Below, one piece after another: positions 284-56,906 of a DNA stretch of 64,000 nt. The stretch is from assembly GCA_016186795.1 (NCBI GenBank), contig JACPKY010000001.1, positions 65,357-129,356 of the forward strand. The letters run 5' to 3'. Both the position numbers and the translations under genes were made by a program. Each line of letters starts with the position of its first letter. The first letter of the stretch is position 1. The notes beneath the pieces were generated by a model. The model saw only the letters and a list, made by a program, of their open reading frames with translations, searched no databases and was not told where the DNA came from. The stretch comes from Candidatus Gottesmanbacteria bacterium (lineage in GTDB: Bacteria; Patescibacteriota; Microgenomatia; 2-02-FULL-39-11).

Positions 284-829
284 TTATTGTGCTCCGACTC
301 CATATCCTACAATCTGTAAATACCTGTTATCATCTGGATATTTAATTACTGCTTGACCGCTTTGTTTTGCTTTGAATGTGATCTTGGCAAGCATCATCGA
401 GCCTACCGGAAGAGTATTTGTTGCTCCTTTTACTACAAGGGCAACTCGGACAAAGTTATAGGTATTATCAAAACTCCCTTCTTTCATAACAACCGGCGCT
501 TCGGTAAACGCATAGGACGGATTTACTGTTTGAACTGCCGGAACAACATTTGTTGCCATAAGTTTCGCCTTATCATAAAGAATAGTCACATCCGCTCCAG
601 AAAGTTTTGCGCTTGAATCATTCATCTGAATCGTCGCAACAACGTCAAAATACTCTCCTGCATCGGGATTCGTATTCCCGGTAGATAAAAGAAGGTTAGC
701 ATTTCCTTGGAGTGCTCGAGGCCGAATATCTTGACCTTTCCGCGTCAGGTATAGAGTCACGGGAAGAGCAAAAAGAAGGAAAAGAAGGAAAAAGATAATG
801 AATTTTGAACGATTATTCATAGGTTGCAT
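284..829 (-). CDS. Hypothetical secreted/membrane-anchored protein (181 aa)
   Basis: N-terminal hydrophobic signal/TM (FIIFFLLFLLFALPVTLYL). It sits immediately downstream of, and overlaps, the subtilisin gene on the same strand. No recognisable catalytic motif. Confidence 0.5.
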   Translation of the reverse strand: MQPMNNRSKFIIFFLLFLLFALPVTLYLTRKGQDIRPRALQGNANLLLSTGNTNPDAGEYFDVVATIQMNDSSAKLSGADVTILYDKAKLMATNVVPAVQTVNPSYAFTEAPVVMKEGSFDNTYNFVRVALVVKGATNTLPVGSMMLAKITFKAKQSGQAVIKYPDDNRYLQIVGYGVGAQ

Positions 830-3371
830 ACAACGCTTGAATTTCTGTTGCCGTCAAAACTTTGTTGTACAATCGAACCTCATCAATTCGCCCTTTGAAT
901 GTTTTCCTCTCTGCATATAAATTCCCTATCGCTGCTTTTATATTACTATCATCCAGTCGGCTCCCGACACCAGTTGATTTCTCATTATGTTCATTTGCGG
1001 GAGCACCATTTTTATAAAACTTTACACCACTTGGATTTACAGACCCGTTCCATGTCACACAGACAAACTGCCACTGATCAAGTGCAATGAGATTATTCGG
1101 TCCAGATACTCGAAGATCCGATCCCGAGTAATTCACGCCGAACCGAAGTGTTTTATCAACGGTTCCCGCATTGTCATTTTCCAGTGAAAACCACAGTCTT
1201 GGACCTTTCGCATATATTCTTCCTTTGCCATCCTCACCAAAACTTTTCGGAAAAATCCATGCACATATGGAAAGTGCTGCAAGATTATTCAAAGATACAT
1301 CCGGATTCATGTACACTTTATCGTCGTCTCCATCAAACCTCCTCGCATTTCCAACTTTCCCGGGTTGAATTGATGTGCCTTCCGCAATCCCAGGATTTCT
1401 TCCTCTTTGATCAGCAACCGTTGTTCCAGATGTCTCATCCATCTTCCAATAACTGACAAGACCAGGAGAAACAGAAGGTGTTGGCGTTGGACTCCGTTGA
1501 GGAGTAGGAGTTGCTGTTGGATTCCCTCCTGGGGTAGGTGTAGACGTCGGATTCCCTCCTGGGGTAGGTGTTGCTGTTGGAACAGGACCGGTTGGAATTA
1601 CTTTTTTTCGTCTCCAAATTTCATAATCACTTAAATCAACAAAGTACGTTGATGAATTTCCTTCCACACATGAAAAATTGGCATTACTTTGAGAAGAGGG
1701 ACTCACAAATGTATTGTATTGCTGTACCCACAGTGCATAGTCCGCCTCATTTATAACGTTGTCACAATTCGCATCACCACTATTTTTTTGCGAACAATTC
1801 GCAGAAGGCGATGGACAATATGGACCTTGTGGATAGGGCGATGGAGGTATTTTGAGTAATTTTGGTGCTCCAGTTGTGGGATACGGTGTCATTGTTGGAA
1901 TTGTCGTAGGAGTTGGGGTTACTGTTGCTTCTGGCTGGTTTGATGGTGATGGAGTTGCGGTTGCCGCAACAGATGGCGTTCCTGTTAGTAAACTTTGGAG
2001 AGCAACAAGTGAGTTTACTCCGCCATGCGTACTTGCATTTCCTCCCCACGAGGAAACTCCAGCAGATTCAATAATTTGTCGAACAGCAGAATTTGAAAGT
2101 CCAGAATTTTTGGCAAGAATGAGAGCGGCAAGGGCTGCAACATGAGGAGATGCCTGTGACGTCCCTGCCATATAGGCATACTGACTATTCTTATAAAGAG
2201 AGACAATACACATGGCAACCTCACTATCCGGACAATCGTTCGGATTTGCATATCCAGTGCAACAATCGCCTCCTGGAGCTGCAACATCAACCCAATTTAC
2301 ATTTCCGCTATTGTGCTCAGAATATGAGGCGAGTTGGTTTGTCTTGGTAAGAGCAGCAACTGATATGACATTTGGGAAAGCTGCCGGATACATATTGGGG
2401 TTTGTCTCATAACCGGTTGGGGTAGGGTTTGTCCCATAAAAAATTGGGCAACTATTCGTTCCTCCGCAATTTCCTGCTGCTGCAACAACAACAATTCCCG
2501 CATTCCAGGCGCGATTTACTGCATCCCTTAGATCATTTTTTTCTGTTGCGTCAATATTTCCTTCATTCACTCCTAAACTCATATTGATGACATCAACATT
2601 TTGGGAAATAGCCCAATCGATACCACGGATAAGCATTGCCGTTGTTCCGGCTCCTTGGTAATTGAGAACTTTTGCCGAAACAATTTTTACTCCCCATCCG
2701 ACACTTGCTACACCTACTGAATTATTGGTCACTGCTCCAATAATTCCTGCCGCGTGGCTCCCATGTCCATGATCGTCAGCTCCTCCTGAGACACAACTTC
2801 CTGAAAGACAGTTCACACTTGTAACAATTTTCCCAGATAAATCGGGGTGATTTGCATCAACGCCGGTATCAAGAATTGCTACTTTAATCCCAGACGTTGC
2901 CGTATTAATTGCATTTCCCGAATTTCCCAAAATATCCCATCCCGACTGATTACCAGGGGTTGGATCGGCAACGCGAAAGGTAGAAAGATTCCATTGATCG
3001 GCAAACCCTGGATCGTTGGCCGTTGCCAGTGCATAGACGGTTGCCGGAATATATGCTGCCTCAACGTTCGGATTTGCCTTCACCTGAATGAGCGCTTGAT
3101 TTGCATCTCCAGTTACTCGGTAAACCAAGGCGTTTGTATTGGGGAGTCCACCCTCAAGGGACGTACCGGGCATAGAGGAAGACACTGAAAGGATCGATTC
3201 ACTTGCGGGAGCACTTTTTAATTTCACGACGATTTGCGTCGGTACGTCAGACGATTGGGCGATTTCTGACCGAGGAACAAAATCCTGTGCCGAAACGGTG
3301 AATCTCCCGATTGTTATAAGGAGCACCAATGTAAAAACACCCACAACTAATGTGGTGAGCTTTTTGGGCAT
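813..3371 (-). CDS. Secreted subtilisin-like serine protease (peptidase S8) with Pro/Thr linkers, a single dockerin-like Ca-binding repeat and a C-terminal LamG/ConA-like lectin domain
   Basis: Signal peptide (LVVGVFTLVLLITIG). S8 catalytic triad motifs: VAILDTGVDANHPDL (Asp), HGHGSHAAGIIGA (His), AAAGN (oxyanion Asn), GTSQASPHVAALAALIL (Ser). Tandem PTPTPGGNPT linkers. NCDNVINEADYALWVQQY resembles one dockerin repeat. C-terminal WKMDETSGTTVAD...RFDGDDDKV...RIDEVRLYNKVLTATEI matches the LamG_3/ConA-like fold. Confidence 0.85.
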   Translation of the reverse strand: MPKKLTTLVVGVFTLVLLITIGRFTVSAQDFVPRSEIAQSSDVPTQIVVKLKSAPASESILSVSSSMPGTSLEGGLPNTNALVYRVTGDANQALIQVKANPNVEAAYIPATVYALATANDPGFADQWNLSTFRVADPTPGNQSGWDILGNSGNAINTATSGIKVAILDTGVDANHPDLSGKIVTSVNCLSGSCVSGGADDHGHGSHAAGIIGAVTNNSVGVASVGWGVKIVSAKVLNYQGAGTTAMLIRGIDWAISQNVDVINMSLGVNEGNIDATEKNDLRDAVNRAWNAGIVVVAAAGNCGGTNSCPIFYGTNPTPTGYETNPNMYPAAFPNVISVAALTKTNQLASYSEHNSGNVNWVDVAAPGGDCCTGYANPNDCPDSEVAMCIVSLYKNSQYAYMAGTSQASPHVAALAALILAKNSGLSNSAVRQIIESAGVSSWGGNASTHGGVNSLVALQSLLTGTPSVAATATPSPSNQPEATVTPTPTTIPTMTPYPTTGAPKLLKIPPSPYPQGPYCPSPSANCSQKNSGDANCDNVINEADYALWVQQYNTFVSPSSQSNANFSCVEGNSSTYFVDLSDYEIWRRKKVIPTGPVPTATPTPGGNPTSTPTPGGNPTATPTPQRSPTPTPSVSPGLVSYWKMDETSGTTVADQRGRNPGIAEGTSIQPGKVGNARRFDGDDDKVYMNPDVSLNNLAALSICAWIFPKSFGEDGKGRIYAKGPRLWFSLENDNAGTVDKTLRFGVNYSGSDLRVSGPNNLIALDQWQFVCVTWNGSVNPSGVKFYKNGAPANEHNEKSTGVGSRLDDSNIKAAIGNLYAERKTFKGRIDEVRLYNKVLTATEIQALYATYE
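1490..1580. repeat. Imperfect ~30-bp tandem repeats encoding the PT-rich linker of the S8 protease
   Basis: Units gattccctcctggggtaggtgt[agacgtcg/tgctgttg] at 1520-1549 and 1550-1579, with a partial upstream copy. They encode PTSTPTPGGNPT repeats on the minus strand. Confidence 0.7.
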
Positions 3372-6011: not shown

Positions 6012-6659
6012 CTAATACTCAAACGAGGAAAGCATTGGTTGGTAGATAAACTCAGGACTGCCTTTTTTGTGAGAGATGAGGTAGACATAATTTTCCGACC
6101 AAAAAGCAGTTACTTCAAGAGGGTATTGAAAATACTCAGAAATTCCACCAAGGGTATAAACTTGTTTATTCGATACTGTTGATGCTGATGGTGTCGACAC
6201 ATGATAGAGAGCAAACGACCGTCTGAGTGGAGCAACCTCCTCACCAGTTGAGGTGCTCGTATTTCCTTCTAACCACGAAGATAAATCCTGGTAAGTTCCA
6301 CGATAGTAAGATGAGAGTCGAACCGAACCATCTTGTGAAGAGAGATCTTTCGGTATAAATTCAAGTATTTTATAGGCATAATTATTTTTCTCACTTCCAA
6401 TAGCGACTGGAATAACGTCATGCGTTGCTGGATACCTTAGTGAAAATTCGAGATCAGGATCATGATAGGTTAACCACGAAGTGTTTGGTTTCGGTTGAAT
6501 ATAAATGGCAAATCGTGGTCCCTCATACATTGTCAGCGTTGCTTCAAACAGTCGGAACCACACGATGACAAGAATAGCCATCAGAAGTATTCCAAGTGAG
6601 AGAACAATGGTAAAATCTGAAATTTTATTTGCGAAAAAATTCCTCATACTAAGAGTCAA
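6012..6659 (-). CDS. Hypothetical membrane-anchored protein (215 aa)
   Basis: N-terminal TM helix (FTIVLSLGILLMAILVIVWF). Shares a short SL(R/K)YP motif with the adjacent upstream paralog. No known domain recognised. Confidence 0.45.
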   Translation of the reverse strand: MTLSMRNFFANKISDFTIVLSLGILLMAILVIVWFRLFEATLTMYEGPRFAIYIQPKPNTSWLTYHDPDLEFSLRYPATHDVIPVAIGSEKNNYAYKILEFIPKDLSSQDGSVRLSSYYRGTYQDLSSWLEGNTSTSTGEEVAPLRRSFALYHVSTPSASTVSNKQVYTLGGISEYFQYPLEVTAFWSENYVYLISHKKGSPEFIYQPMLSSFEY

Positions 6660-7261
6660 TCAAAAGAAAGAGAAGAAATCATTTGGTGATAACTACTTCC
6701 AATTTTCTGGGCCTGTTGGGCGACAAAAATTGCATATTTATCAGTCAGAAAAAGTGTTGCCACTAAAGGATCGGCGATATCCGGATCGCCTATTGTAAAC
6801 TTGGCCGCCTCTTTGTCGTTTACAGTGCGATAAATAACGTTGTTGACTTGATATAACAAGAATTTCCCTGAGGACAAATCGCCAGAAGAAGTTGTATTTT
6901 CGACAATCCAATCTGATAGATTCTTACTATTTCTCTTTGGTAAAACCGTAACTAGAATTGGACTTTGCGCATCTTTTCCAGAAGGAATAAATGAAAGTGC
7001 GAGTAAAAAATCTCTACTTGTTGCAGTTAAATCTTCCATCGAATAAGTCAGTGGATATTTCAGTGATAATCCGAGATCTTCATTCGTATAGGATTGCTCA
7101 GTTCCCGATGTGGGATTTATTTCCGCTGGCCACTCAGATGGAGAAAGCCGGTCTGTTTTAACTAGTCTTACCAAAAAAAAGACAGCTATAAGAAAAACAA
7201 GAACTAACAGTGCAACAAGAATGTGATAAATATTTTTAATCATAAATAGCTCCCAAAACAT
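6656..7261 (-). CDS. Hypothetical membrane-anchored protein (201 aa), likely paralog of 6012-6659
   Basis: N-terminal TM helix (ILVALLVLVFLIAVFFLV). Similar length and architecture to the downstream gene, with a 4-nt overlap suggesting co-transcription. Confidence 0.45.
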   Translation of the reverse strand: MFWELFMIKNIYHILVALLVLVFLIAVFFLVRLVKTDRLSPSEWPAEINPTSGTEQSYTNEDLGLSLKYPLTYSMEDLTATSRDFLLALSFIPSGKDAQSPILVTVLPKRNSKNLSDWIVENTTSSGDLSSGKFLLYQVNNVIYRTVNDKEAAKFTIGDPDIADPLVATLFLTDKYAIFVAQQAQKIGSSYHQMISSLSFD

Positions 7262-9310
7262 TTAACATCCACCACCACATTTACACTGACCATTCGGGCA
7301 ACATACCGGATTATTATTCTCGCAAGGATAGCTATCACAACTGCCTGGATTGAAATTACATCCACCACCACCATCACCGGTACAACGTCCGCAGCAACCG
7401 CCATTACAGCCATAACCTGGCTCTTTATTACAACACTGTTCTGGACTTGAACAGCCTGAATGGCCATTGGGAACGCAGTAGGGCGGTTCTGTAGGTTCAG
7501 CTTTTTTTCCGCCGACGCAGTCATACCCCCATGTTTTGCTGGCATCAACGTACACACAGTAAACAGTTCCATCGGGGCATTCTGGCTTATCACCGCTACA
7601 TTTACTCTCATCAATCACTCGACAGATTGGTTCCCACGTATCATCTTCTTTCTGTGCACAGAGGATTGTTCCGGTGGAAGGACACGAAGGAGCAGTTTTC
7701 CCTTCACATTTATCCGCGTTCGGATCTACATCACATACGTCATCATTCCATTCCCACTTATCTTCCTCATCTTCTCCAACATTGATACACTCTTTGGCTT
7801 CCTCACAGGGTTTTTCCACATCCTTACACTCCTCTCCGTCGCTACTTACCGGATAACAATTTAATTTATATTTTCCGGAATCTTCCGAATCCTCTTCACA
7901 TTTGGTAGAATATTTTTTCCCGTCATCTGGACAATCTGCAGTCTGTCCCTCACATTTGTCTTTCGTAGTTGGAGGTGAAGTTGAGGCGGCAACACATGCT
8001 CCGGCAACACATGTTCGTTTGGGATCGTATGAGGCGCAATCTTCTCCAGTATCTTGCCATTTATAGGAAGTTTTTGTGTCATCGGGATCTGTATCAACAC
8101 ATGCTTGGGGATTCTTTGAACTAGGTGAACATCTCCTCTCGTTATTCGCAACTGCTACCTGATCACATTCGCTCTTAGTACTGTCTCCGCATGTGGCGTC
8201 TTTATCTGCTGCTGGTTGTATACAGTATGGTCCGTTGCATGAAACCTTGTCCTTTTTATAGCGGTGACTACTCGTATCACATTCCCAGTATCCACTTCGA
8301 TCACCCGTACAGGTATTGACACTACATGATGCTGGACTTTGAGAGAATGGCACGCACCCGGTTCCCTCAACACAATCCTCTTCGGAACCACAATCTTTCT
8401 TGGTGAGAGTTTTTCCATCGCTACTGCAGGAAACTTGGCGCTTTTTCCTCTGTCCCATGTCCTGGCAGGTAATCCCATTATTTTTGGCTTCATAGGTACA
8501 AAGCGTATCATCACATTTGCCGGTGGATTGGTTACATACTTTTCCATTAAGACAACCGTTGGGATCGGCAACCCACTGATTGCCGCTACTGCAGTTGTAC
8601 AATTTTCCATTAAAACATGCGGTGGTGTCATTGTCTGAATCACATGCCTTCTCCTTTTTTGGTTTACATTCGGCCTTGTCTGTACAATACTGGCTGTCTG
8701 CATCACACGGCGGATTAATATCGATCCAATTAGTCGAGTATTTGGGGCACTTTGATCGATAAATAACATTGTCCACCGGAGTGCAGTCATACAACTCTTC
8801 GGTGTTATTCCCATCGCACCCATCCGTCCCCAATGCACTTATATACTGCGCTTTCCCTGCTGCGGCAAGCTGATTATTGGCACAGAGTTGATTGCAGGCA
8901 ATTTTGTCATCAAGACTATCACTGTAAAACTGGCACGTCGACATCTGGTTGGTAAATAAATCTCGTTCGCAATATCCGTTCGTATTACAAACAAGGCATT
9001 GCCGAACCAAACTTGCCCCAGGTTGTTCAAGCTGCGTATCATCTCCAATCCCAATCCCCAGAAACGGTCCTTCAAAAATTGCTCTGGGGTTCATTGTAAA
9101 CACTCGTACAGTCATTGATCCGGCGTAAAAAGAGGCAAGGAGTGTTACTAAAACAAGAAGGAGAAGAAGAATCAGGGGAAACCGATGGTTTGACTCCAGA
9201 TGATGTTTCATCTGGTTCCATCGGGAAGACTTTTTCACTTGCATAGAAAACAGAGTGCTTTTACATGCACCCCTTTCTTCTAGTAAATGCTTTTTCCTTA
9301 GTCTTGTCAA
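7262..9310 (-). CDS. Large secreted, very cysteine-rich acidic protein (682 aa; roughly 90 Cys by eye)
   Basis: N-terminal TM/signal (FPLILLLLLVLVTLLASFYAG; alternative internal starts at MQVKK or MKHHLE are possible). The remainder is D/E/K/C-rich with dense CxxxC/CxC spacing. It ends in CCNKEPGYGCNGGCCGRCTGDGGGGCNFNPGSCDSYPCENNNPVCCPNGQCKCGGGC. No enzymatic motif. Confidence 0.6.
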   Translation of the reverse strand: MTRLRKKHLLEERGACKSTLFSMQVKKSSRWNQMKHHLESNHRFPLILLLLLVLVTLLASFYAGSMTVRVFTMNPRAIFEGPFLGIGIGDDTQLEQPGASLVRQCLVCNTNGYCERDLFTNQMSTCQFYSDSLDDKIACNQLCANNQLAAAGKAQYISALGTDGCDGNNTEELYDCTPVDNVIYRSKCPKYSTNWIDINPPCDADSQYCTDKAECKPKKEKACDSDNDTTACFNGKLYNCSSGNQWVADPNGCLNGKVCNQSTGKCDDTLCTYEAKNNGITCQDMGQRKKRQVSCSSDGKTLTKKDCGSEEDCVEGTGCVPFSQSPASCSVNTCTGDRSGYWECDTSSHRYKKDKVSCNGPYCIQPAADKDATCGDSTKSECDQVAVANNERRCSPSSKNPQACVDTDPDDTKTSYKWQDTGEDCASYDPKRTCVAGACVAASTSPPTTKDKCEGQTADCPDDGKKYSTKCEEDSEDSGKYKLNCYPVSSDGEECKDVEKPCEEAKECINVGEDEEDKWEWNDDVCDVDPNADKCEGKTAPSCPSTGTILCAQKEDDTWEPICRVIDESKCSGDKPECPDGTVYCVYVDASKTWGYDCVGGKKAEPTEPPYCVPNGHSGCSSPEQCCNKEPGYGCNGGCCGRCTGDGGGGCNFNPGSCDSYPCENNNPVCCPNGQCKCGGGC

Positions 9311-9475: not shown

Positions 9476-9549
9476 GCCTCCTTAGCTCAGTGGCAGAGCG
9501 ACGGTTTTGTAAACCGCTGATGACAGTTCGATTCTGTCAGGAGGCTCCA
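9476..9549 (+). tRNA. tRNA-Thr (anticodon UGU), CCA encoded
   Basis: Manual cloverleaf: acceptor GCCTCCT/AGGAGGC, D-arm GCTC-AGTGGCA-GAGC, anticodon stem ACGGT/ACCGC with loop TTTGTAA (anticodon TGT), T-arm GACAG-TTCGATT-CTGTC, discriminator T followed by CCA. Confidence 0.8.
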
Positions 9550-10053
9550 GCTGAGGTGGCGGAGTGGACAACTAAATTTTTTGATTTAGAATACATACAT
9601 CATGTAGCCACATTGATAAAAAAACTTTTTGGTATTGATTCAAAGATAGCAACATCGAACAGTGGGTATTACGTGGTATATTTTGGCTCAACGGAGACGG
9701 TACGATGGTTACTTGGAATGGGACTGGTCTTCAATAAGGTTAAGAGCCAAGTCAATGCACCGGATTGGATACTTTCTCAGAAAGAGTATATGAAATTTTT
9801 CTTAAAGGGATTTTTTGATACTGATGGCTCAGTATATAAATTACGATTTGGTATCCAATTGTCCTTTACGAACAGATCAATACCCTTATTGAATTCGTTG
9901 CGACGTTGTCTTTTCGTACTTGGTTTCAAACCATCAATTATCAGCTGTTACCATATATACTTGACAAGACGTGATGATGTGAGTAAGTTTTTCCGAGAAG
10001 TTGGTCCTGCAAACAAGAAACATAGAGAAAGATTTCGACTATTCCATATGTGA
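9490..10053 (+). CDS. LAGLIDADG homing-endonuclease-like ORF (possibly N-terminally degenerate; true start probably downstream of the tRNA overlap)
   Basis: Contains ...SQKEYMKFFLKGFFDTDGSVYKLRF..., a classic LAGLIDADG block (hydrophobic-K/A-G-F-x-D-x-D-G-S). Only one clear motif is present, at about residue 112. The annotated ATG lies inside tRNA-Thr, so the N-terminus is uncertain. It is intergenic between two tRNAs. Confidence 0.5.
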   Translation: MAERRFCKPLMTVRFCQEAPAEVAEWTTKFFDLEYIHHVATLIKKLFGIDSKIATSNSGYYVVYFGSTETVRWLLGMGLVFNKVKSQVNAPDWILSQKEYMKFFLKGFFDTDGSVYKLRFGIQLSFTNRSIPLLNSLRRCLFVLGFKPSIISCYHIYLTRRDDVSKFFREVGPANKKHRERFRLFHM

Positions 10054-10066
10054 GATGCCCTTATTA

Positions 10067-10149
10067 GCCAGGATGGCTGAGTGGACTAAAGCACGAGACT
10101 GTAAATCTCGCGCCGTAAGGCTTCCTAGGTTCGAATCCTAGTCCTGGCA
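10067..10149 (+). tRNA. tRNA-Tyr (anticodon GUA), long variable arm, no encoded CCA
   Basis: Acceptor GCCAGGA/TCCTGGC, anticodon stem CGAGA/TCTCG with loop CTGTAAA (anticodon GTA), long variable arm CGCCGTAAGGCTTC, T-arm CTAGG-TTCGAAT-CCTAG, discriminator A. Confidence 0.8.
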
Positions 10150-10185
10150 CTGAAGAGGATTTTGGCCCATGTCAGTTTAGACATG

Positions 10186-18378: not shown

Positions 18379-18816
18379 TTATTTGTACTTTGCCAGAGGT
18401 ACAACTCTTACGCCTTTGATTTTTGATTGATGCTTGGGGTTATCGGTAACAAGAATGGCGTCCTCTTTTTTAGCCAAAGCTGCAAATGCAGCATCATAAT
18501 ATGTGAACTTTTTATCACCAAGTAACCTCACTTCATATGCCATTTGATAAGTTTGAAAAGCTAGGTTAGGAGTTTCAGAAATAAACTCTATCGGAAGACT
18601 GGAGATTGTTCCCAAATTTTGATTAGCTTGATTCACTTCTATACCCTTTTTAAGTATCGCATTTCCCACCTCATATTTAGCAAGTTCGGGAGCTATCAAA
18701 ATCGCTTTTCCCGCCTGGGCATCCACAAGTATTTGGTTTGCCTCTTTTATATTCGATTCGTTATTCTGCTTGACCCATTTAACCATCACCGAACTATCCA
18801 CTACTACTTTTTTCAT
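18379..18816 (-). CDS. vapC: PIN-domain toxin (VapC-like)
   Basis: KKVVVDSSVMVKW (Asp-containing N-terminal strand), ...YDAAFAALAKKEDAILVTDN (conserved acidic residues of the PIN fold). Follows an antitoxin gene with a 2-nt spacing. Confidence 0.75.
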   Translation of the reverse strand: MKKVVVDSSVMVKWVKQNNESNIKEANQILVDAQAGKAILIAPELAKYEVGNAILKKGIEVNQANQNLGTISSLPIEFISETPNLAFQTYQMAYEVRLLGDKKFTYYDAAFAALAKKEDAILVTDNPKHQSKIKGVRVVPLAKYK

Positions 18817-27429: not shown

Positions 27430-28671
27430 ATGCAAAAAAAAATTACAACAATTCTTATCATCGTTATTTCCTTTTTTTTCCTAAGTCTTTTCGCCCCCTC
27501 AAATACGTCGGCACAGTACGTCCGGTTCCCGATTCCTGAACTTGGCTACTGTGAGGATCCAATCAGCTGTTATGATTTCTGTCAAATTCCAGAAAATTCT
27601 CCCGCTTGTTGGTCGTATGGGAAGTTTATCCTTAAAAAAAATGTCCTTGGAGAAGAAACGGAAACTCCGGAAGAAAAGGCAAGAAAAGCGGGAATTACTT
27701 TTCCTGTTGCGGAACTTGGGAATTGTACGGATGCAAAGTCTTGTATGGCCTACTGTAATGAGCCGGACCACTACGAAGCATGCAGTCAGTTTGCCCAAAA
27801 ACACGGTCTTAGGAAAAACGAAGATAACCAAAATGAGCCAAATCAGAAAATTCTCCAAGCTGCTGCCACTGAGCTAGGCTGTACCACTCCTGATGCATGC
27901 AAAGCTTTTTGCCAACGGGAAGAAAACGCAACGAAATGTAGTGAGTTTGGAGAAAAACATAAGCTCATCCAGTCAAAAAATAAGGTCACACGAGAGGTTA
28001 TTGCAAAAGCAAAACAAGAGCTCGGGTGCAACTCTGAATCCTCATGTCGAACCATTTGTAGTCAGGTAGAAAATCAGGAAAAATGCATGGCGTTTGGGAA
28101 GAAAGTTGGACTTGTAGAAGAAGAGAAATTCCAAAAATTTCAGGAAAACCAACAGGATCAGATGCGGACTTTAGAAAAAGCAAAACAGGAGCTTGGATGC
28201 GACTCGAGAGAATCTTGCAGTAATTTTTGTGAAAGAGAGGAAAATAAAGATAAATGCATACGGCTTCATGAAAGTGTGAGCCGGGACGATCGCGAAGGAA
28301 AAAATACAATCCAATCGGAAAATCGAGGTCCGTCAGAAAACCAAGGTCCATCCGAAAACCAGGGTCCAAGTGATAAGCGACCAGTTCAGACAAATCAATC
28401 CAGAGGTTCCGATACTCAAGGCTGCAAAACAGAAGCAGAATGCAAGGCAATTTGCGAAAAAAACCCAGATAAATGTCCCGGATTTTCCGAGTCTTCCTCA
28501 AAGATGGGAAAATCAAGCGCTGGATTTGAGGCCATTCGAGTCAAGGAAGAAGAAGAATTACGACGACAAAAAGGAAATAGTCCAAACGATTCACCTCGGG
28601 AGATTCCCAATCAGGAAAAACCAAAAGAAAATACTTCAACCAATACGTCGAATGGTGGATTCCCTCAATAA
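27430..28671 (+). CDS. Secreted cysteine-repeat protein (6 x about 35-aa four-Cys ELGC modules)
   Basis: Signal peptide (ILIIVISFFFLSLFAPSNTSA). Six copies of the [A/Q/T]ELGC-x4-5-C-x3-C-x5-8-C-x2-(F/H)G-x-K-(H)-x-L module, plus a tandem ENRGPSENQGPSENQGPSD repeat. Confidence 0.6.
   Translation: MQKKITTILIIVISFFFLSLFAPSNTSAQYVRFPIPELGYCEDPISCYDFCQIPENSPACWSYGKFILKKNVLGEETETPEEKARKAGITFPVAELGNCTDAKSCMAYCNEPDHYEACSQFAQKHGLRKNEDNQNEPNQKILQAAATELGCTTPDACKAFCQREENATKCSEFGEKHKLIQSKNKVTREVIAKAKQELGCNSESSCRTICSQVENQEKCMAFGKKVGLVEEEKFQKFQENQQDQMRTLEKAKQELGCDSRESCSNFCEREENKDKCIRLHESVSRDDREGKNTIQSENRGPSENQGPSENQGPSDKRPVQTNQSRGSDTQGCKTEAECKAICEKNPDKCPGFSESSSKMGKSSAGFEAIRVKEEEELRRQKGNSPNDSPREIPNQEKPKENTSTNTSNGGFPQ
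28321..28377. repeat. 18-bp tandem repeat (x3) encoding (S/R)ENQGP within the Cys-repeat protein gene
   Basis: ggtccgtcagaaaaccaa / ggtccatccgaaaaccag / ggtccaagtgataag. Confidence 0.6.
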
Positions 28672-37531: not shown

Positions 37532-37759
37532 ATGGATACTCAACGCATCACCATCAGTCTTCCTGGATACATCTATAAACGTCTCAGAAAGACAATACCG
37601 TCTCGTGGTATAAGCCAATTTGTGGCAAAAACCGTGGAAAAAGAACTTATGGATATGAAAGCAGAAGACCCTATCCAAGGATTTTTTGAACTTCAGAATC
37701 ATTTTCCAAAACTGACCACAAAACAAATTCTCAACGCAATCAGAAAAGGAAGAACGTGA
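37532..37759 (+). CDS. RHH (CopG/Arc-like) antitoxin
   Basis: MDTQRITISLPGYIYKRLRKTIPSRGISQFVAKTVEKEL is the ribbon-helix-helix N-terminal beta-strand plus helices. Its stop overlaps the start of the PIN gene by 4 nt. Confidence 0.5.
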   Translation: MDTQRITISLPGYIYKRLRKTIPSRGISQFVAKTVEKELMDMKAEDPIQGFFELQNHFPKLTTKQILNAIRKGRT

Positions 37760-38169
37760 AGATTTTTATTGTGGATGCTTCTATACTGCTCCGAACTCTC
37801 TCAAATAAAGGTGGTACCGCTGACATTTTCCTTCGGAAACTTCTTGCAGACCAAAAAAGCAATTCTACTCATCTCTATTCCACTTCATTTCTGATGATAG
37901 AAGTTGCAAATGGATTACGTTTCTCTCTTGGCGATGAAAAATTTGCTAGAGATTCCCTAAGACGGCTTTCAATTCTGCCAATTCGGTATATCGAAATAAC
38001 CAGTTCTTATCTCGAAGAAGCGCTACGGTGGTCCTATACGTACAAAACAACCGTCTACGACAGTATCTATCATGTCGTAGCAAAAATGCTTGATGGGACG
38101 TTTCTGACATGCGATGACGAGTATTACCAGAAAGCAAAATCAGTCGGGAATATCAAGCTTCTCAGTTAA
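37756..38169 (+). CDS. vapC: PIN-domain toxin (VapC-like), second copy
   Basis: MKIFIVDASILL (first conserved Asp), ...FLMIEVANGL..., ...IYHVVAKMLDGTFLTCDDEYY (conserved C-terminal Asp). Confidence 0.7.
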   Translation: MKIFIVDASILLRTLSNKGGTADIFLRKLLADQKSNSTHLYSTSFLMIEVANGLRFSLGDEKFARDSLRRLSILPIRYIEITSSYLEEALRWSYTYKTTVYDSIYHVVAKMLDGTFLTCDDEYYQKAKSVGNIKLLS

Positions 38170-40126: not shown

Positions 40127-40150
40127 TAGATGTGTTATACTGAGGCTAAC

Positions 40151-41041
40151 ATGAAACAGTTTAGCCTCAAAACATTTTTGCGAAAATATCCTAATGACGA
40201 AGCGTGCCTAGAGGAGATTAAGAATACCCGTTGGCCTCAAGGTATTACTTGCCCCAAATGCCAAAAAATCACCAAATTCTATAAAATAACAGACCGCACA
40301 GCTTACTCTTGTGAGTTCTGTAGGACGCAGGTATTCCCATTAGCAGGTACTATCTTTGAGAAAAGCACAGTATCCCTTAGATTATGGTTTTATGCCATGT
40401 TTTTGATGATTAAGACACGGTCTGGTATATCTGCAAAACAACTAGAGAGAGAATTAGGAGTTTGTTACAAAACCGCCCACCGCATATTTAAGCAAATCCG
40501 TATGCTTATGGACGAAGGAAACGGAGATAAATTGACAGGAAATGTAGAAGTAGATGAAACATTTATCGGCGGAAGGGGTGTGAATAGAAGATATAAGCCT
40601 AATTTTAGTGAGATACCAAAAGAAGTAGTTATGGGTATGATACAAAGAAACGGAAAAGCATATTTAAGACATATACCAAACACAGGTAAATGGACACTTC
40701 TAAAACAGATAAGAGATAATGTTGATGTAAAAGCACGAGTTATTACAGACCAATGGTTAGCTTATGGTAGTTTACCCAAATATGGATATAAACACGATTT
40801 TGTAAATCATCAGGAAACCTATGTAAAAGGCGATATTCATACACAAAACGCAGAGATGATGTGGAGTATCTTAAAAAGAGATATTTACGGAGTTTATCGC
40901 CATGTATCGGCTCAATATTTACAAAATTATGCCAACGAATATGCCTGGCGATACAACCATAGAAACAGTGAAGATATGTTTACTGATTTACTCAAGCAGA
41001 TTGCTTTGGTGAAGGTCGTGAAGGCGAAACAGCTCGTCTGA
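40151..41041 (+). CDS. IS1595-family (ISXO2-like) transposase
   Basis: N-terminal transposase zinc-ribbon (CPKCQKITKFYKITDRTAYSCEFCRTQ), then the DDE_Tnp_IS1595 core (VEVDETFIGG..., ...ITDQWLAYGSL..., ...HQETYVKGDIHTQNAE...). Confidence 0.8.
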   Translation: MKQFSLKTFLRKYPNDEACLEEIKNTRWPQGITCPKCQKITKFYKITDRTAYSCEFCRTQVFPLAGTIFEKSTVSLRLWFYAMFLMIKTRSGISAKQLERELGVCYKTAHRIFKQIRMLMDEGNGDKLTGNVEVDETFIGGRGVNRRYKPNFSEIPKEVVMGMIQRNGKAYLRHIPNTGKWTLLKQIRDNVDVKARVITDQWLAYGSLPKYGYKHDFVNHQETYVKGDIHTQNAEMMWSILKRDIYGVYRHVSAQYLQNYANEYAWRYNHRNSEDMFTDLLKQIALVKVVKAKQLV

Positions 41042-47556: not shown

Positions 47557-48405
47557 TTATTGAAGGAGACTATTCCAGTCTTCCCAAAATTTAGCAATTC
47601 CAATAGTGGTTAAATCGTGGGAAATATTGTATTCTTGCCATGGTTTTCCCAGAGTAATATCCTCTTTGTATGGAATTGGTTTAAGCTTTCCAACGGGATA
47701 AACATAGCTTGTATCTGGTATTGTAAATCCACCATCTGCCCACGTTTTGAAGACTTTAAATGGACAGGTAATAATGTCCGAACCAAGTCTGAGAGCATAG
47801 AGGATATGGTCAACTCCTCGAAGGCTTGCTGTTAATACTTCTACATGTCCGTCCCCTGAGGTATACATCTCCAGAATATTTTCCACAACCTGCATCCCAT
47901 TCTCTCCTCTATCATCAAGTCTACCTACAAAAGGAGAAATAAAAACAGGATACTTTGCTCCCTTTGTTGCTTCATAGACTGCGGCTGCTTGTGATTGAGA
48001 AAATACCAATGTTATATTAACTGGCATTTCTTTACAGGCAATTTCTGCTGCGGTAAGTCCTTCTTTCGTGCATGGAAATTTTATCGAGTGGTTGGGTATC
48101 CATGTTTTCCTTGCCCGGGCTTGTCTGAGCATTTCATCAGCCTTTGTTTCTTCCTGAGCAAAAACTTGAATGGATATTGAGCCTTCTGGAATAATTCCGC
48201 TCATCTGCCTAACCACTCGTTTGTATTCATCAAGTGCTTGAGTTTCAGTAAGCTTTGTTCCCCCGGCTTTTGCGGTATAGTTTTTTGCAATAAGAGATGG
48301 ATTGGTCGTCTGACCATCTAAGAAACCTAGAAGTACTTTGGCCTGACGAGTTTCTTGAGGAGACCCCCCATCAATAAAAATTTTCGAGCTAATATTTTTT
48401 GGCAT
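47557..48405 (-). CDS. tal: Transaldolase
   Basis: IFIDGGSPQETRQAKVLLGFLDGQTTNPSLIAKN is the transaldolase N-terminal signature (D...TTNPSL). Confidence 0.75.
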   Translation of the reverse strand: MPKNISSKIFIDGGSPQETRQAKVLLGFLDGQTTNPSLIAKNYTAKAGGTKLTETQALDEYKRVVRQMSGIIPEGSISIQVFAQEETKADEMLRQARARKTWIPNHSIKFPCTKEGLTAAEIACKEMPVNITLVFSQSQAAAVYEATKGAKYPVFISPFVGRLDDRGENGMQVVENILEMYTSGDGHVEVLTASLRGVDHILYALRLGSDIITCPFKVFKTWADGGFTIPDTSYVYPVGKLKPIPYKEDITLGKPWQEYNISHDLTTIGIAKFWEDWNSLLQ

Positions 48406-48409
48406 AGAT

Positions 48410-50299
48410 TTATTTTACTAACTGTACAGCTTCTCTCACAATCGATTTGGCAGATATTCCCTCAAAATCCATAAGTTCATCGGGCTTTCCGCTTCTGGGA
48501 AGCTTGGAAACTGCTAGCTTTTTCACCTGAATATTTTCTAAATTAATAAGCTCATTTAATACCGCATCCCCCAGTCCTCCCTCGTACCAATGATCCTCGA
48601 CAACGATAACATTTCTTGCTTCTTTTGCAAGTTTCCGAAGGGTTACTCCATCAATCGGTTTGACAGAATAACAGTCAACAACAATCGCTTCAATATTTTT
48701 CTTGATTAACTCTTCCTGTGCTTTTAACGCTTCAAAAAACGTCACACCAGCTCCGATAATAAGTACTTTTTTCTGTTCTTTGTTTTTTGTCTGCCCTGAG
48801 CGGAGCCGAAGGGTTTTCTGTTTACTGATTCTATGAATCTTACATCCACCTATAGGAAATTTCTCAGATGGAGCATAGATTACCGGCGTTGCCGGCCGTG
48901 TTGTTCTCATATATCCCATGTGCGGTGCACGGATCATTTCTCCGACAAGCTGAAACGTTGATGTTGCATCCGATGGGTAGACAACAAAACATCCTTGAAT
49001 GGTTCGAAACATAGAAAGGTCCTCAAGTCCCATCTGCGATGGACCATCTTCACCGATAGATACTCCTGCATGAGAACCGCAGATTTTGATATTTGCCCCG
49101 GACAAAACTCCCATCCGGATTTGGTCGTACGCTCGTGTTAAAAATGCGGCAAAAGTCGATGCGAAGGGAATCTTCCCCATTTTGGATAGCCCTATTGCCG
49201 CTCCCATCATGTTCTGTTCGGCTATGTACATTTCAAAGAACCGTGTTGGAAATTCTGCTTTGAATATTTCTGCAAAGGTTGAATTTTTCACTTCGCCATC
49301 CAGTACGACGAGATTTGGTACAATTCTCCCGTAGAACGCCAAAGCCTCTCCGTAGGCTTTGCGTGTTGCGACTTTATCACCGAGTTTGTAGGGAGCTTTG
49401 ATATTTGATCCGCCAACTAGCGGATGATATTTGATATTTGCTGCAGGCGGTTTCTTAACACTAATTTTCAAATCTGTATCAATGTCTCCTAATTCTTTAA
49501 TAGCCTGTTCATATTGATCTTGCGGCAACGGCTTTCCATGCCAACCAAGTTTATCTTCAAGAAACGAAACTCCCTTCCCCTTAATCGTTTTTGCGATAAT
49601 CATGTATGGACCGGTTGTTCTCCCAATCTGCTCATATGCTTTCTCAATCTGCCGAAAGTCATGGCCATCAATGATTTTCGTTGCCCACCCAAAACTTTCG
49701 ACTCGTTTCTGGTAAGTCGATAGATCATATTCAAGCATTGTTGCCTCACTTTGACCCAGGCGGTTCACATCCAAAATTGCTGTAAGATTATTCAGTTTGT
49801 ATTTTCCAGAAAGTGCAAGAGCTTCCCAGACAGATCCTTCGGCCATTTCCCCATCGCCTAAAAGGACGACTGTCATATAGTCGGATTTATCCAAATACTT
49901 TCCATTGAGCGCACACCCAACGCCAATCGATAACCCTTGGCCTAAAGAGCCCGTTGCAGCCTCTGCATAGGGAAAACGAAACGTCGGATGCCCTTCAAGA
50001 TTACTTGTAAAAGTCCGGTAGGAATGCACATCTTCCTCTTTTAGAACATCTGCAAGCATAAAAAGGGCATAATACAGGGGCGATGCATGGCCTTTACTAA
50101 ATATTAATCTGTCATTGGTGGGATTTTTCGGATTTTTAAAATCATAGCGGAAGTATTTTGAAAAAAAAACACTCATAAGATCTGTTGCAGAAAGTGATGA
50201 AGTGGGATGGCCAGATGCTGCCAAAGTTGACATCTGAAGAATCAAATATCGAATCTTTTTGGAAATTTTTTCAAAATCAGGGTTTGGTGAGATCTGCAT
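48410..50299 (-). CDS. tkt: Transketolase
   Basis: ThDP-binding signature ASGHPTSSLSATDLMSVFF, GDGEMAEGSVWEA, and the pyrimidine/C-terminal domains across 629 aa. Confidence 0.9.
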   Translation of the reverse strand: MQISPNPDFEKISKKIRYLILQMSTLAASGHPTSSLSATDLMSVFFSKYFRYDFKNPKNPTNDRLIFSKGHASPLYYALFMLADVLKEEDVHSYRTFTSNLEGHPTFRFPYAEAATGSLGQGLSIGVGCALNGKYLDKSDYMTVVLLGDGEMAEGSVWEALALSGKYKLNNLTAILDVNRLGQSEATMLEYDLSTYQKRVESFGWATKIIDGHDFRQIEKAYEQIGRTTGPYMIIAKTIKGKGVSFLEDKLGWHGKPLPQDQYEQAIKELGDIDTDLKISVKKPPAANIKYHPLVGGSNIKAPYKLGDKVATRKAYGEALAFYGRIVPNLVVLDGEVKNSTFAEIFKAEFPTRFFEMYIAEQNMMGAAIGLSKMGKIPFASTFAAFLTRAYDQIRMGVLSGANIKICGSHAGVSIGEDGPSQMGLEDLSMFRTIQGCFVVYPSDATSTFQLVGEMIRAPHMGYMRTTRPATPVIYAPSEKFPIGGCKIHRISKQKTLRLRSGQTKNKEQKKVLIIGAGVTFFEALKAQEELIKKNIEAIVVDCYSVKPIDGVTLRKLAKEARNVIVVEDHWYEGGLGDAVLNELINLENIQVKKLAVSKLPRSGKPDELMDFEGISAKSIVREAVQLVK

Positions 50300-50341
50300 G
50301 GATGTTAATGGTTGTTATTGTAACGCAGACGATGCCTTTTC

Positions 50342-51010
50342 TCAAGACTGAGGAGGGGGTTTGTCGGGATTTCGAAGTGAAGAATCTGCTTGCCCAAGTA
50401 TCTGAATAGCCTTGGAAACATCTGGGGAAGAAAAAATATATGAATTGGCATTGATTCGTGTTGCACCAGAAGATAGTACTTTTTTTGCATTCTCCGGATT
50501 CATCGCCCCATCAACAGTAATTGGTATATCCATATCAATTTCCCGAATTTTTTTTATTTTTTCAACCGTATCCTCTCTATAAGGCCGTCCAGAGAATCCG
50601 GCATCAATTGCCATAACTAAAACACCATCTAAATGGATAATAAACTTATGAATTTTCTCAAAATCAGTCGGGCCATCAATTGCCAGACCTACCTCAACGC
50701 CAAGTTTATATGCTTGTTCAATGTACTCATCGACATAGTCACCTTCAACATGGGCATAAAAGCGCTTAAACCCAACTTTTGCAAAATTCTCCAAGTACCT
50801 GAGTGGATCTTTCACCATCATGTGTAGTTCAAGCTTTGCAGGAGTTTTGAGTGCAGCAAATGCTTGAGAATCAGTAAACGTTTCGTTGGGAACAAGGGTT
50901 CCATCTGCTATATCAATCTGAATCCACGAAACAAATTTTTCAACTAGATGGATCTTTTTTTCTATTTCTCCAAAATCTTTCTCGAGGATGGCAGGAATGA
51001 CTTCAACCAT
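50342..51010 (-). CDS. rpe: Ribulose-phosphate 3-epimerase
   Basis: MVEVIPAILEKDFGEIEKKI, LELHMMVKDP, HLDGVLVMAIDAGFSGRPY (RPE TIM-barrel motifs). Confidence 0.8.
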   Translation of the reverse strand: MVEVIPAILEKDFGEIEKKIHLVEKFVSWIQIDIADGTLVPNETFTDSQAFAALKTPAKLELHMMVKDPLRYLENFAKVGFKRFYAHVEGDYVDEYIEQAYKLGVEVGLAIDGPTDFEKIHKFIIHLDGVLVMAIDAGFSGRPYREDTVEKIKKIREIDMDIPITVDGAMNPENAKKVLSSGATRINANSYIFSSPDVSKAIQILGQADSSLRNPDKPPPQS

Positions 51011-51476
51011 ATTCTTCTATCTGCTTCAGCCTTCTCACATGCCGTTCTTCTCCGGAAAATTCCGTATCAAGCCATGTTTTAAGAATCTTTTTTGCTTCAT
51101 GCTCTTCCAGCCAATCGCCTGATAACGCAAGAATATTCACGTCATTATGTTCTCGACAGTGCCTTGCGGAGCGAACATCAAATGCAAGCGCAGCTCGTGC
51201 GCCGGAAACTTTGTTTGCCGCAACCACCATTCCTGCAGCAGATCTACAGCACAAAATCCCTTTTGATCTGTCTTTCCAGTGGTAGGGGAAACGAATTCCT
51301 TTCTTTTCGTCAAGACTCACTTTCTGCCCAACAAGAAAGGCAAATTGGGGATAATCATCTTCTTTGTCATACATGGCATTTCCCACATCCTCAACACTAT
51401 ACCCCCAGGTTTTTAACCATCCCTTTATTTTTTCTTTAAGATCAAAACCTCCGTGATCACTCCCTATGTAAATCAT
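51003..51476 (-). CDS. rpiB: Ribose-5-phosphate isomerase B
   Basis: MIYIGSDHGGFDLKEKIKGWL...ILCCRSAAGMVVAANK (RpiB/LacAB family). Confidence 0.8.
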   Translation of the reverse strand: MIYIGSDHGGFDLKEKIKGWLKTWGYSVEDVGNAMYDKEDDYPQFAFLVGQKVSLDEKKGIRFPYHWKDRSKGILCCRSAAGMVVAANKVSGARAALAFDVRSARHCREHNDVNILALSGDWLEEHEAKKILKTWLDTEFSGEERHVRRLKQIEEYG

Positions 51477-52408: not shown

Positions 52409-52465
52409 GTTTTCATTATATTCTACTTTCTTTGCGTACTCAAAGAAATAGATAATAATGTATAT

Positions 52466-53170
52466 ATGGATAATATTTGGCTAAGCCAAATTATAAGAAA
52501 TCTAGAACTATTTGAACGTGATTTTGTAATCGCTTGCCAAAAGGCTGGGAGGAAAAAAGAAGATGTACAGATTCTCTACGCCACAAAATATCTTCAACCC
52601 CACGAATTTTTGGAATTTGTAAACTTTCTTCACGATACAAAGCGCCCGATCATCATCGGAGAAAATCGCATACAGGATGGAAAGAAGAAGTTAGACTTTG
52701 TTAAAAATCAAAAGCCAATACTTTTCAAGTACATTACTCCAATATCTATTGGGACTCTTCAAACGAACAAAATAAATACCGCACTGACCTACTTTTCAGA
52801 AATTCACTCGGTCGATTCTCTTGACCTCGCTGTGGACTTGAACAATCGTCTCGCAAGATCGGGAAAAACCCTTGCTGTGTATATAGAAGTCAATGCGTCA
52901 GGAGAACAAGCAAAGCATGGATTGACTCCTTCTGAATTTCCACGCGTGTATACTACAATTCAACAATTGAAATATATTCATGTAAAAGGACTTATGACAA
53001 TGGCACCATTAACAGAGAATGTAAAAACTATTCATAATGTCTTCAGGAAAGCAAGAACCTTGGCCAACACATATGGTCTTCTCACGTCTATGGGCATGAG
53101 TCATGATTGGAAAATAGCGCTCGAAGAAGGAAGCGTTATGATAAGAATTGGTTCAGCAATTTTTTCATAA
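52466..53170 (+). CDS. yggS: YggS-family pyridoxal-phosphate homeostasis protein (PLPBP)
   Basis: [11 protein letters not shown] (PLP Lys), [55 protein letters not shown]. The track ORF starts at 52298, but that overlaps gnd; the internal MDNIW start is used instead. Confidence 0.7.
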
Positions 53171-55028: not shown

Positions 55029-55040
55029 TCTCTTATTCTA

Positions 55041-56892: not shown

Positions 56893-56906
56893 ATAATAAA
56901 TATAAA

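Follow-up and report, generated by a model that had tools for sequence, protein, structure and literature searches.

The cysteine-rich gene and its upstream region

The window considered here is a stretch of 64,000 nucleotides from Candidatus Gottesmanbacteria bacterium, a member of the candidate phyla radiation (CPR), and the subject of this work is a minus-strand gene within it, which encodes an extremely cysteine-rich protein and stands at the head of a set of co-oriented protease genes. The original prediction had described an open reading frame (ORF) of 682 residues at 7262-9310. A long ORF does lie there, on the minus strand, but the true gene is shorter, encoding 660 residues from an ATG at 9244. 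The plus-strand reading of 7262-9310 was rejected, as it is riddled with stops, and the internal strings and the C-terminal end quoted at the time (...CCNKEPGYGCNGGCCGRC...KCGGGC) were all found exactly in the minus-strand translation. The gene and its upstream elements are the following:

7262-9244, minus strand: cysteine-rich gene, 660 residues plus stop, an exact match over 660 residues to NCBI MBI2616565.1 (HYW55_00330)
9245-9282, minus strand: hairpin in the 5' leader, reaching as far as the start codon, with a terminator-like flag at 9273-9252
9282-9310, minus strand: promoter-like block, composed of TTGACA (9310-9305), a 17-nucleotide spacer and TTTACT (9287-9282)

In what follows, P0001 denotes the protein of the window, P0002 to P0005 its homologues, and L001, L002, L003 and L084 to L086 the loci with which the window was compared. 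The region 7262-9244 was taken as the gene because the homologous loci L001 and L084 carry in-frame stops between the promoter-like block and the first ATG, because residues M23 to M34 of the 682-residue ORF (ATG 9244 to ATG 9211) are conserved at the protein level in homologues, with synonymous arginine codons (CGA/AGG), and because the NCBI annotation likewise has 660 residues. There, on a contig of 193,780 bp, the protein is assigned to Candidatus Gottesmanbacteria bacterium and labelled 'hypothetical protein'. A taxonomic placement by means of the transketolase was ambiguous, with 53-60% identity to many phyla, and gave way to this exact match. The TTG at 9310, which would yield the 682-residue product, was rejected as a start, since it corresponds to the first three bases of the TTGACA hexamer, which resembles a -35 element. 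Some gene callers choose a second start, the ATG at 9211, giving 649 residues.

The promoter-like block (TTCTTGACAA...AAAAAGC-TTTACT) is kept in L001 and L084 despite an identity of only 31-53% between the coding sequences, and a pattern TTCTTGACAA-N-AAAAAGCATTTACT is common to the upstream blocks of the window, L001 and L084 genes. A consensus promoter scanner left the block at 9282-9310 unflagged, since its -10 element does not have an A at position 2. The leader hairpin that follows has a folding energy of -15.7 kcal/mol (z = -4.5), and hairpins with other stem sequences occupy the same place in L001 (~640-723, z -2.5) and L084 (~860-938, z -2.2), while the folding analysis revealed no equivalent in L002. 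This element may act as a translational or attenuator control.

Architecture of the cysteine-rich protein

Five regions can be distinguished in the protein, from the N- to the C-terminus:

9119-9244, minus strand: basic cytoplasmic N-terminal tail (residues 1-23) and single transmembrane helix (~24-42), the most conserved part of the family
9032-9112, minus strand: conserved juxtamembrane segment, AGS-x-T-x-x-V-F ... A-x-FEGPF-x-G-I-G-I-G, defined by alignment
8867-8998, minus strand: six-cysteine head, C-x2-C-x5-C-x11-C-x12-C-x3-C (CLVCNTNGYCE...CNQLC), common to the five family members
7481-8866, minus strand: variable, non-repetitive cysteine-rich ectodomain, acidic and lysine-rich, ~460 residues, with a cysteine every 3-21 residues
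7265-7480, minus strand: CC/GGC-rich C-terminal tail ending in KCGGGC, with 16 cysteines in the last 71 residues

The protein had been predicted to be secreted, and export or membrane anchoring is indeed supported by its basic N-terminal tail (five Lys/Arg and three His residues against one acidic residue) followed by one strong hydrophobic helix, with nothing else hydrophobic in the chain: the Kyte-Doolittle profile over 19 residues reaches its maximum of 2.65 at residue 24, and every other window of that size stays at or below 0.52. In the juxtamembrane segment, the residues S, A, G, S, T, F, A, F, E, G, P, F, G and G are invariant in the five members, and a short linker joins it to the head, whose own invariant residues are C, C, G, Y, C, E, C, S, C, N and C. 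An (F/Y)EGP(F/R) motif is found equally far from the transmembrane helix in the cysteine-rich protein (9032-9112) and in a protein encoded downstream on the same minus strand (paralog B, motif region 6480-6540), and homology between the two (F/Y)EGP juxtamembrane segments was unsupported in a profile comparison (hhalign probability 0.6%).

A terminus dense in cysteine and glycine is present in all five members (CGGGC, GGCTAGICCT, GGCSAGICCI, CPGGECK and CGGGTCCC). The cysteine spacing of the window protein's tail, C-x7-C-x5-CC-x7-C-x3-CC-x2-C, resembles a knottin pattern only in part, and the 72-residue tail alone matched no Pfam family at E <= 10, toxin, knottin, granulin and hevein models included.

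With regard to composition, the 660-residue protein contains 68 cysteines (10.3%; the 682-residue ORF has 69, or 10.1%), a proportion that rises to 11.8% from the first ectodomain cysteine onward and to ~22% in the last 71 residues. The earlier estimate of one residue in seven was thus too high for the whole protein and too low for the tail. The enrichment is nonetheless extreme, with a binomial P of ~4e-49 relative to the 0.88% cysteine averaged by the window's other long ORFs and of ~5e-16 relative to the 3.3% expected from random codons at the same base composition. The background is acidic and lysine-rich, as had been stated (D 10.4%, E 6.4%, K 8.3%; 97 D+E versus 59 K+R), histidine accounts for 0.3% of the residues, and the hydrophobic residues VLIFMWY together for 15%.

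Several observations bear on the state of these cysteines. Their totals in the five family members are 68, 72, 74, 52 and 60, that is, even in every case, which would happen about once in 32 if parity were random. In the N-terminal half, P0001 and P0002 share 36 of 36 cysteines, compared with 230 of 378 other residues (61%), and in a comparison of three sequences 47 of 68 cysteines are kept, compared with 122 of 581 other residues. Cysteines in the body of the protein lie 3-21 residues apart, and P0001 has only three CC, one CxC and two CxxC motifs, nearly all of them in the last 71 residues; its closest homologues have two to five CxxC motifs. A disulfide-knotted architecture is the best reading of these data, since it accounts for the even counts, the conservation of cysteines in the N-terminal half, the spacing of 3-21 residues and the scarcity of CC, CxC and CxxC motifs outside the tail. 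Both an even number of cysteines and cysteine positions conserved above background, which mark the class of disulfide-bonded extracellular proteins, are found here, and the ectodomain would be expected to form disulfides. Internal periodicity of the cysteine spacing, whose examination had been suggested at the outset, was not found: self-BLAST of P0001 yielded no matches, the autocorrelation of cysteines against gap shuffles over 120 lags reached a z of at most 3.4, with best lags that differ between homologues and no significant periodicity, and hhalign comparisons of sub-alignments, segment versus segment, gave probabilities of at most 2.3%.

A small family with a steep gradient of conservation

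A phmmer-type search of 5.8 billion proteins recovered, apart from the protein itself, only P0002 (49% identity) and P0003 (32%), and P0004 and P0005 emerged from an exhaustive hidden Markov model search of 1.84 billion cluster representatives, with profile matches confined to the N-terminal 125-175 positions. The family thus consists of five proteins, all of them from Logan assemblies of five SRA runs and one, P0001, also in NCBI; all five are long open frames with a common N-terminal module. No paralogue from the same organism appeared in either protein search. Scans of GTDB species representatives and JGI metagenomes with the family profile and with a paralog B profile returned no relatives, a tblastn search of plasmids gave no match, and a literature search on Gottesmanbacteria and cysteine gave nothing relevant. 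The whole protein matched no family in Pfam (E <= 0.1) or NCBIfam, and its segments nothing significant; PHROGs gave no family, and PDB sequence and profile searches were empty save for chance TOM40 matches at E ~0.4. These searches bear out the initial impressions that no enzymatic motif is visible (no domain was found in Pfam, NCBIfam, PHROGs or PDB) and that the composition recalls no family that could be named. It had also been proposed to look for homologues restricted to related episymbiotic lineages, and the restriction proved to take an extreme form, with five proteins in all the public data searched. The family is an orphan one, with a distinctive architecture and operon, within a loosely defined kind of protein that is already known.

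Conservation falls off steeply along the chain. The N-terminal tail and transmembrane helix are 70-76% identical to those of P0002, P0003 and P0004, the juxtamembrane segment retains 52-63% identity even to the most distant members, the head module is 34-86% identical to its homologues, and the distal third only 2-37%, the close homologue P0002 included, with at most 29% for the other three members. Over the distal part of the variable ectodomain the identity to homologues drops to 2-25%, and at the far end of the protein to 20% or less. When P0001 was compared with its closest homologue, at L001, the proportion of nonsynonymous differences (pN) was 0.22 over residues 1-430 and 0.49 over residues 431-660, and that of synonymous differences (pS) was 0.79-0.82. 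As synonymous sites are saturated, the ratio of nonsynonymous to synonymous substitution rates (dN/dS) is not computable, and pN and pS are given instead. The excess of pS (~0.8) over pN (0.22-0.49), together with the conserved promoter block and start, shows, at the level of sequence comparison, that the gene is real and under purifying selection.

A protease operon headed by the cysteine-rich gene

Downstream of the cysteine-rich gene, and in the same orientation, lie five further genes that are whole within the window:

6656-7261, minus strand: paralog A, a transmembrane-anchored protein of ~200 residues with a weak match to PF18933 PsbP_2 (E 1.2e-4, below the gathering score)
6012-6647, minus strand: paralog B, a transmembrane-anchored protein of 211 residues with a PsbP/Mog1-like ectodomain, an exact match to NCBI MBI2616563.1
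3436-6006, minus strand: secreted metalloprotease of the M4 (thermolysin-like) type, with a LamG_3 domain at its C-terminus, assigned by Pfam
813-3371, minus strand: secreted subtilase of the S8 type, with a LamG_3 domain at its C-terminus and a dockerin-like motif (Peptidase_S8 7e-53, Laminin_G_3 4e-22)
284-829, minus strand: transmembrane-anchored cohesin-like protein (Cohesin PF00963, E 1.4e-6, 29 bits, above the cutoff)

The order of the genes in the compared loci is as follows:

Window and L003: cysteine-rich gene, A, B, M4-LamG_3, S8-LamG_3, cohesin-like gene, gene for a 753-residue protein
L084: cysteine-rich gene, A, B, M4-LamG_3
L002: cysteine-rich gene, A, B, S8 (the S8 gene directly after the paralogs)
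L085: cysteine-rich gene, single paralog, S8 directly after it
L086: B, M4, S8, cohesin-like gene (the cysteine-rich gene being off the contig)

The genes are tightly packed, with no gap between the cysteine-rich gene and A, five nucleotides between B and the M4 gene, and an overlap of 17 nucleotides between the S8 and cohesin-like genes. The cysteine-rich gene comes first in the cassette in every locus long enough to show it, and persists in L002 and L085, from which the M4 gene is absent. Upstream neighbours vary between loci (toxin-antitoxin pairs, tRNA genes or a divergent MltG gene), so that the unit begins, at its 5' end, with the cysteine-rich gene. The original prediction had placed it at the close of a secretome block made of two proteases and two membrane paralogs; the block and its common orientation are confirmed, but when transcribed the gene opens it rather than closes it.

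The structure predicted by AlphaFold2 for paralog B (predicted local distance difference test score, pLDDT, 72; predicted TM-score, pTM, 0.64) consists of a transmembrane helix and a PsbP/Mog1-like domain. Its top Foldseek matches were the PsbP structures 1v2b (E 1.8e-5), 2vu4 and 2lnj, with E values up to 9e-5, followed by weaker ones to EagT6, SciW, DcrB, Apa and MTC28, so that the model shows a PsbP-like fold for this protein. Paralog A aligns with paralog B, and diverges fast (27-28% identity to its counterparts, compared with 52-58% for B). The two PsbP-like paralogs thus evolve at very different rates, A being approximately as divergent as the cysteine-rich ectodomain. Between the window and L084, identity amounts to 74% for the M4 protease, 58% for B and 28% for A, and to 43% for the cysteine-rich protein, which is alignable over its first 190 residues only and whose ectodomain ranges from 464 to 709 residues across members. 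Judged by these identities, no part of the cassette evolves faster than the cysteine-rich ectodomain and paralog A.

Pfam identifies in the M4 gene Peptidase_M4_C (2e-35), Peptidase_M4 (1e-12) and Laminin_G_3 (1e-19), and its product is 74-75% identical to the counterparts in L084 and L086. The S8 subtilase, 64% identical between loci, is the only protease present in every locus long enough to show it, and it carries at residue 533 a dockerin-like DANCDNVINEAD, recognized by regular expression only. The cohesin-like gene, the last of the cassette that is whole within the window, has a counterpart with 75% identity at the same position in L086, where the S8 and cohesin-like genes are conserved as a pair. 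The co-occurrence of the two motifs suggests a cohesin-dockerin tether that may hold the S8 protease on the cell surface.

Proposed function and alternative explanations

Our tentative preference, to which we would give somewhat less than an even chance, is that the protein is an N-terminally anchored, disulfide-knotted and protease-resistant stalk or adhesin, forming the outer, variable portion of a protease module at the cell surface. According to this model, it would be a type II (N-in/C-out) surface protein of the Gottesmanbacteria cell, held in the membrane by its basic cytoplasmic tail, transmembrane helix and juxtamembrane segment. Because these three elements are unusually conserved, more so than a disposable signal peptide would normally be, the anchor is probably retained rather than cleaved, and the N-terminal region would dock the protein to conserved partners, the likeliest of which are the co-encoded, transmembrane-anchored PsbP-fold proteins; binding to these paralogs would follow from the model. 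Outside the membrane, an ectodomain of ~580 residues with almost no hydrophobic core would be held together by ~34 disulfide bonds in a non-repetitive framework, resulting in a rigid stalk that withstands proteases and evolves very fast over the two thirds farthest from the membrane. The gene would be the first to be transcribed in an operon that also comprises secreted S8 (and M4) proteases bearing LamG, lectin-like domains, and a cohesin-like anchor, and it is this company that leads us to regard the product as the probable contact-making, variable outer component of a surface proteolytic module, serving in feeding or attachment. An adhesive or a protective role would both fit, that is, an adhesin or a shield that needs to survive beside the cell's own proteases. 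The protein had originally been likened to disulfide-knotted adhesins or metal-binding proteins. The disulfide-knotted character has held up, metal binding is disfavoured for the body of the protein and conceivable only for the CC-rich tail, and the adhesin remains a supposition.

A number of points weigh against this model. The invariant A-G-S after the helix fits the -3, -1 positions of a signal-peptidase site, and the protein could be released by cleavage there instead of being anchored. The fast divergence of the distal part could come from relaxed constraint and not from selection for binding diversity. No homology to any adhesin was detected in Pfam or NCBIfam, and AlphaFold2, run on the full protein with a three-sequence alignment, gave a pLDDT of 32.7 and no usable fold. 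A switching coat of the type formed by Giardia's variant-specific surface proteins (VSPs) is unsupported, because the gene is single-copy. Regarding the disulfides themselves, no Dsb, VKOR, DsbA or thioredoxin-like ORF was found in the window with Pfam and a CxxC regular expression, and the groundwater habitat is presumably low in oxygen, so that extracellular thiols might stay reduced. As a precedent in favor of the model, MdbA-like oxidoreductases, encoded beside VKOR, have been described in most CPR bacteria (bioRxiv 10.1101/335083).

Among the other explanations, the protein might be a multi-headed, disulfide-rich inhibitor tethered to the membrane, through which the producing cell would protect itself by blocking the co-encoded S8 and M4 proteases at its surface. 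Its gene is always immediately upstream of the protease cassette, co-oriented and closely packed with it, many families of inhibitors consist of small modules rich in disulfides, and parallels exist both in operon-encoded inhibitors of secreted proteases and in a cysteine-rich, TIL-type insect inhibitor of thermolysin-like enzymes. There is, in addition, a sub-threshold match to the EB module, which accompanies Kunitz inhibitors in nematode proteins, limited to the P0002 tail (18.7 bits versus a cutoff of 24.3). However, no significant match to an inhibitor family (Kazal, TIL, SSI, WAP, Kunitz/EB) was obtained in Pfam, NCBIfam or PDB, and the cysteine-rich gene persists in the two loci that lack M4. 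Moreover, the proteases are conserved (M4 74-75%, S8 64%) while the ectodomain is unalignable past 190 residues and highly variable in length, a pattern contrary to that expected of an inhibitor paired specifically with its enzyme, and we consider this explanation unlikely. A role in metal or redox buffering, in which reduced thiols in anoxic groundwater would bind Zn, Fe or Cu or scavenge oxidants, and perhaps supply the Zn-dependent M4 protease, draws on the CC, CxxC and CxC clusters of the tail (CCGRC, CKCGGGC), on the failure to find a Dsb or VKOR gene in the 64-kb window, and on the precedent of the Giardia VSPs, whose protease resistance depends in part on bound metal (PMC6341118). Yet the spacing of the body cysteines, with just six clustered motifs among 68 cysteines and 0.3% histidine, is unlike the clusters of metallothioneins, metal binding would give no reason for the even parity of all five members, and M4 is missing from L002 and L085, so that this role seems decidedly improbable.

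It has also been considered that the protein is a wall- or S-layer-associated cross-linker, whose intermolecular disulfides, especially through the CC-rich tail, would rigidify the envelope, a function akin to that of chlamydial OmcA and OmcB. The extreme cysteine content, the Cys/Gly-dense terminal tail of every member and the membrane anchoring of the protein all speak for it, as does the rigidity that has been suggested as a role of cysteine-rich proteins in Peribacteria (PMC4736985). In contrast, the even cysteine counts in the five members fit complete intramolecular pairing, a housekeeping wall protein should neither outpace the divergence of its neighbours nor be limited to five sequences, and the linkage to proteases would be left unexplained; we see little chance that this is the correct account. 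The least probable proposal, and one that we would hardly expect to hold, is that of a polyprotein precursor, from which the co-encoded proteases would cut and release small disulfide-knotted peptides acting as toxins, signals or antimicrobials. The operon linkage with two endoproteases, the lysine-rich and dibasic stretches between cysteine clusters (KPKKEK, RKKRQ), and the tails of P0001 and P0005, with a C-x6-7-C-x5-CC arrangement that partly recalls knottin-type patterns, are in its favor, but there is no repeated peptide unit or cysteine periodicity, the dibasic sites are not conserved in P0003, and the tail matches none of the toxin, knottin, granulin or hevein families in Pfam.

The protein had already been deposited as hypothetical, cysteine-rich surface proteins had been noted in CPR bacteria before, and the family has only five sequences. 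The stalk or adhesin model nevertheless matters, as CPR bacteria rely on other cells and the molecules of their contact surfaces are almost unknown. As a candidate for the surface apparatus with which Gottesmanbacteria feed or attach, the compact, conserved cassette is concrete and open to test. An extreme, non-repetitive bacterial disulfide framework of ~34 predicted bonds, with no detectable repeats, may also be of interest for protein stability.

Other features of the window

A second cysteine-rich secreted protein, unrelated to the first, is encoded on the plus strand at 27430-28671. It has 413 residues, 5.8% cysteine and a signal peptide ending in SAQ, and contains six ELGC-x4-5-C-x3-C-x7-8-C units and a Q/N/E-rich spacer, with no match in Pfam or NCBIfam. 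In the region 9476-10150 (plus strand), a LAGLIDADG-type ORF at 9490-10053 (LAGLIDADG_3, E 1.4e-11) fills the gap between the genes for tRNA-Thr(TGT) and tRNA-Tyr; since the GTG listed as its start overlaps the tRNA-Thr gene, the true one is probably further downstream. An IS1595-family transposase (40130-41041, plus strand; DDE_Tnp_IS1595, 7e-35) is found just ahead of the L10 leader and the genes for L10 and L7/L12, in a patch at 40-42 kb with 33% G+C, compared with ~42% in the rest of the window.

PIN-domain toxin genes are scattered in the window (18379-18816, minus strand; 37756-38169, plus strand), and in L001, L002 and L084 toxin-antitoxin pairs (RelB/YafQ, MazE/PIN) are found immediately upstream of the cysteine-rich gene. 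Finally, a compact sugar-metabolism cluster on the minus strand (47557-58298) encodes transaldolase, transketolase, ribulose-phosphate 3-epimerase, RpiB, 6-phosphogluconate dehydrogenase, glucose-6-phosphate dehydrogenase, a 6-phosphogluconolactonase-like protein and glycogen synthase, and is followed by glycosyltransferase genes.

Comparison with known systems

Among bacterial envelope proteins rich in cysteine, chlamydial OmcA and OmcB are examples whose disulfides are thought to give mechanical strength. Their sequences have no relationship to the window protein detectable with Pfam, the cysteine content of OmcB is several-fold lower, and both are tied to a diderm outer membrane and come without a protease operon. 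The inhibitor modules TIL/IMPI, Kazal, SSI and EB-associated Kunitz are disulfide-stabilised with a small core, as is predicted for the window protein, and like it are associated, in genomes or in function, with M4- and S8-type proteases. They differ in that the best of their models, EB, stays below its cutoff and matches P0002 alone, and in that the ectodomain varies much more than its would-be protease targets. From metallothioneins, the protein is set apart by its low number of clustered motifs (6 CC/CxC/CxxC among 68 cysteines), its length of 660 residues and its export signal.

Nearest in presumed mode of action, together with the Giardia VSPs, are the large extracellular cysteine-rich proteins of CPR Peribacteria, which have been proposed to provide rigidity or attachment (Anantharaman et al. 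2016, PeerJ, PMC4736985). Like the window protein, these come from groundwater CPR bacteria, are predicted to be exported or membrane-associated, have a very high cysteine content and are devoid of functional annotation. However, they have ~1,655 residues and ~7% cysteine and occur in a cluster of 14 genes, whereas the window family is single-copy, has 10-13% cysteine and heads a protease operon. Some of them are weakly similar to Myxococcus cysteine-rich repeats or to FG-GAP, for which the window protein gave no match in Pfam or NCBIfam. The resemblance therefore covers host, export signal and cysteine content, and not sequence, since the profile matched only the five family members.

The other such parallel is that of the Giardia VSPs, whose cysteine-rich ectodomains resist proteases and shield the cells (PMC6341118). 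The VSPs (PF03302) share with the window protein a single membrane pass, ~11-12% cysteine, a conserved anchor-proximal part and a variable ectodomain. On the other hand, the VSP anchor is C-terminal, with a conserved cytoplasmic tail, while the only helix of the window protein is N-terminal (24-42) and its C-terminus is a hydrophilic Cys/Gly sequence; VSP ectodomains are dominated by CXXC motifs, of which the window protein has two among 68 cysteines; and the VSPs form a switching family of ~200 genes, compared with the single copy found here. The PF03302 signature was not matched by the whole protein (Pfam E <= 0.1) or its segments (E <= 10). Resistance to proteases, as displayed by the VSPs, is a property that would be needed beside co-secreted proteases. 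It can be envisaged, as a bolder idea that is unlikely but worth stating, that the protein is a bacterial counterpart of the protozoan shield: a fast-evolving, disulfide-knotted, protease-proof surface protein that would spare an ultra-small episymbiont from its own broad-spectrum S8 and M4 enzymes, tethered on its surface through cohesin/dockerin and LamG, while the variable tip of the shield would contact the host cell or substrate. If this were true, the PsbP-fold partners would join with the conserved N-terminal tail, transmembrane helix and FEGPFxGIGIG segment in an undescribed membrane docking platform for a CPR 'surface digestosome'.

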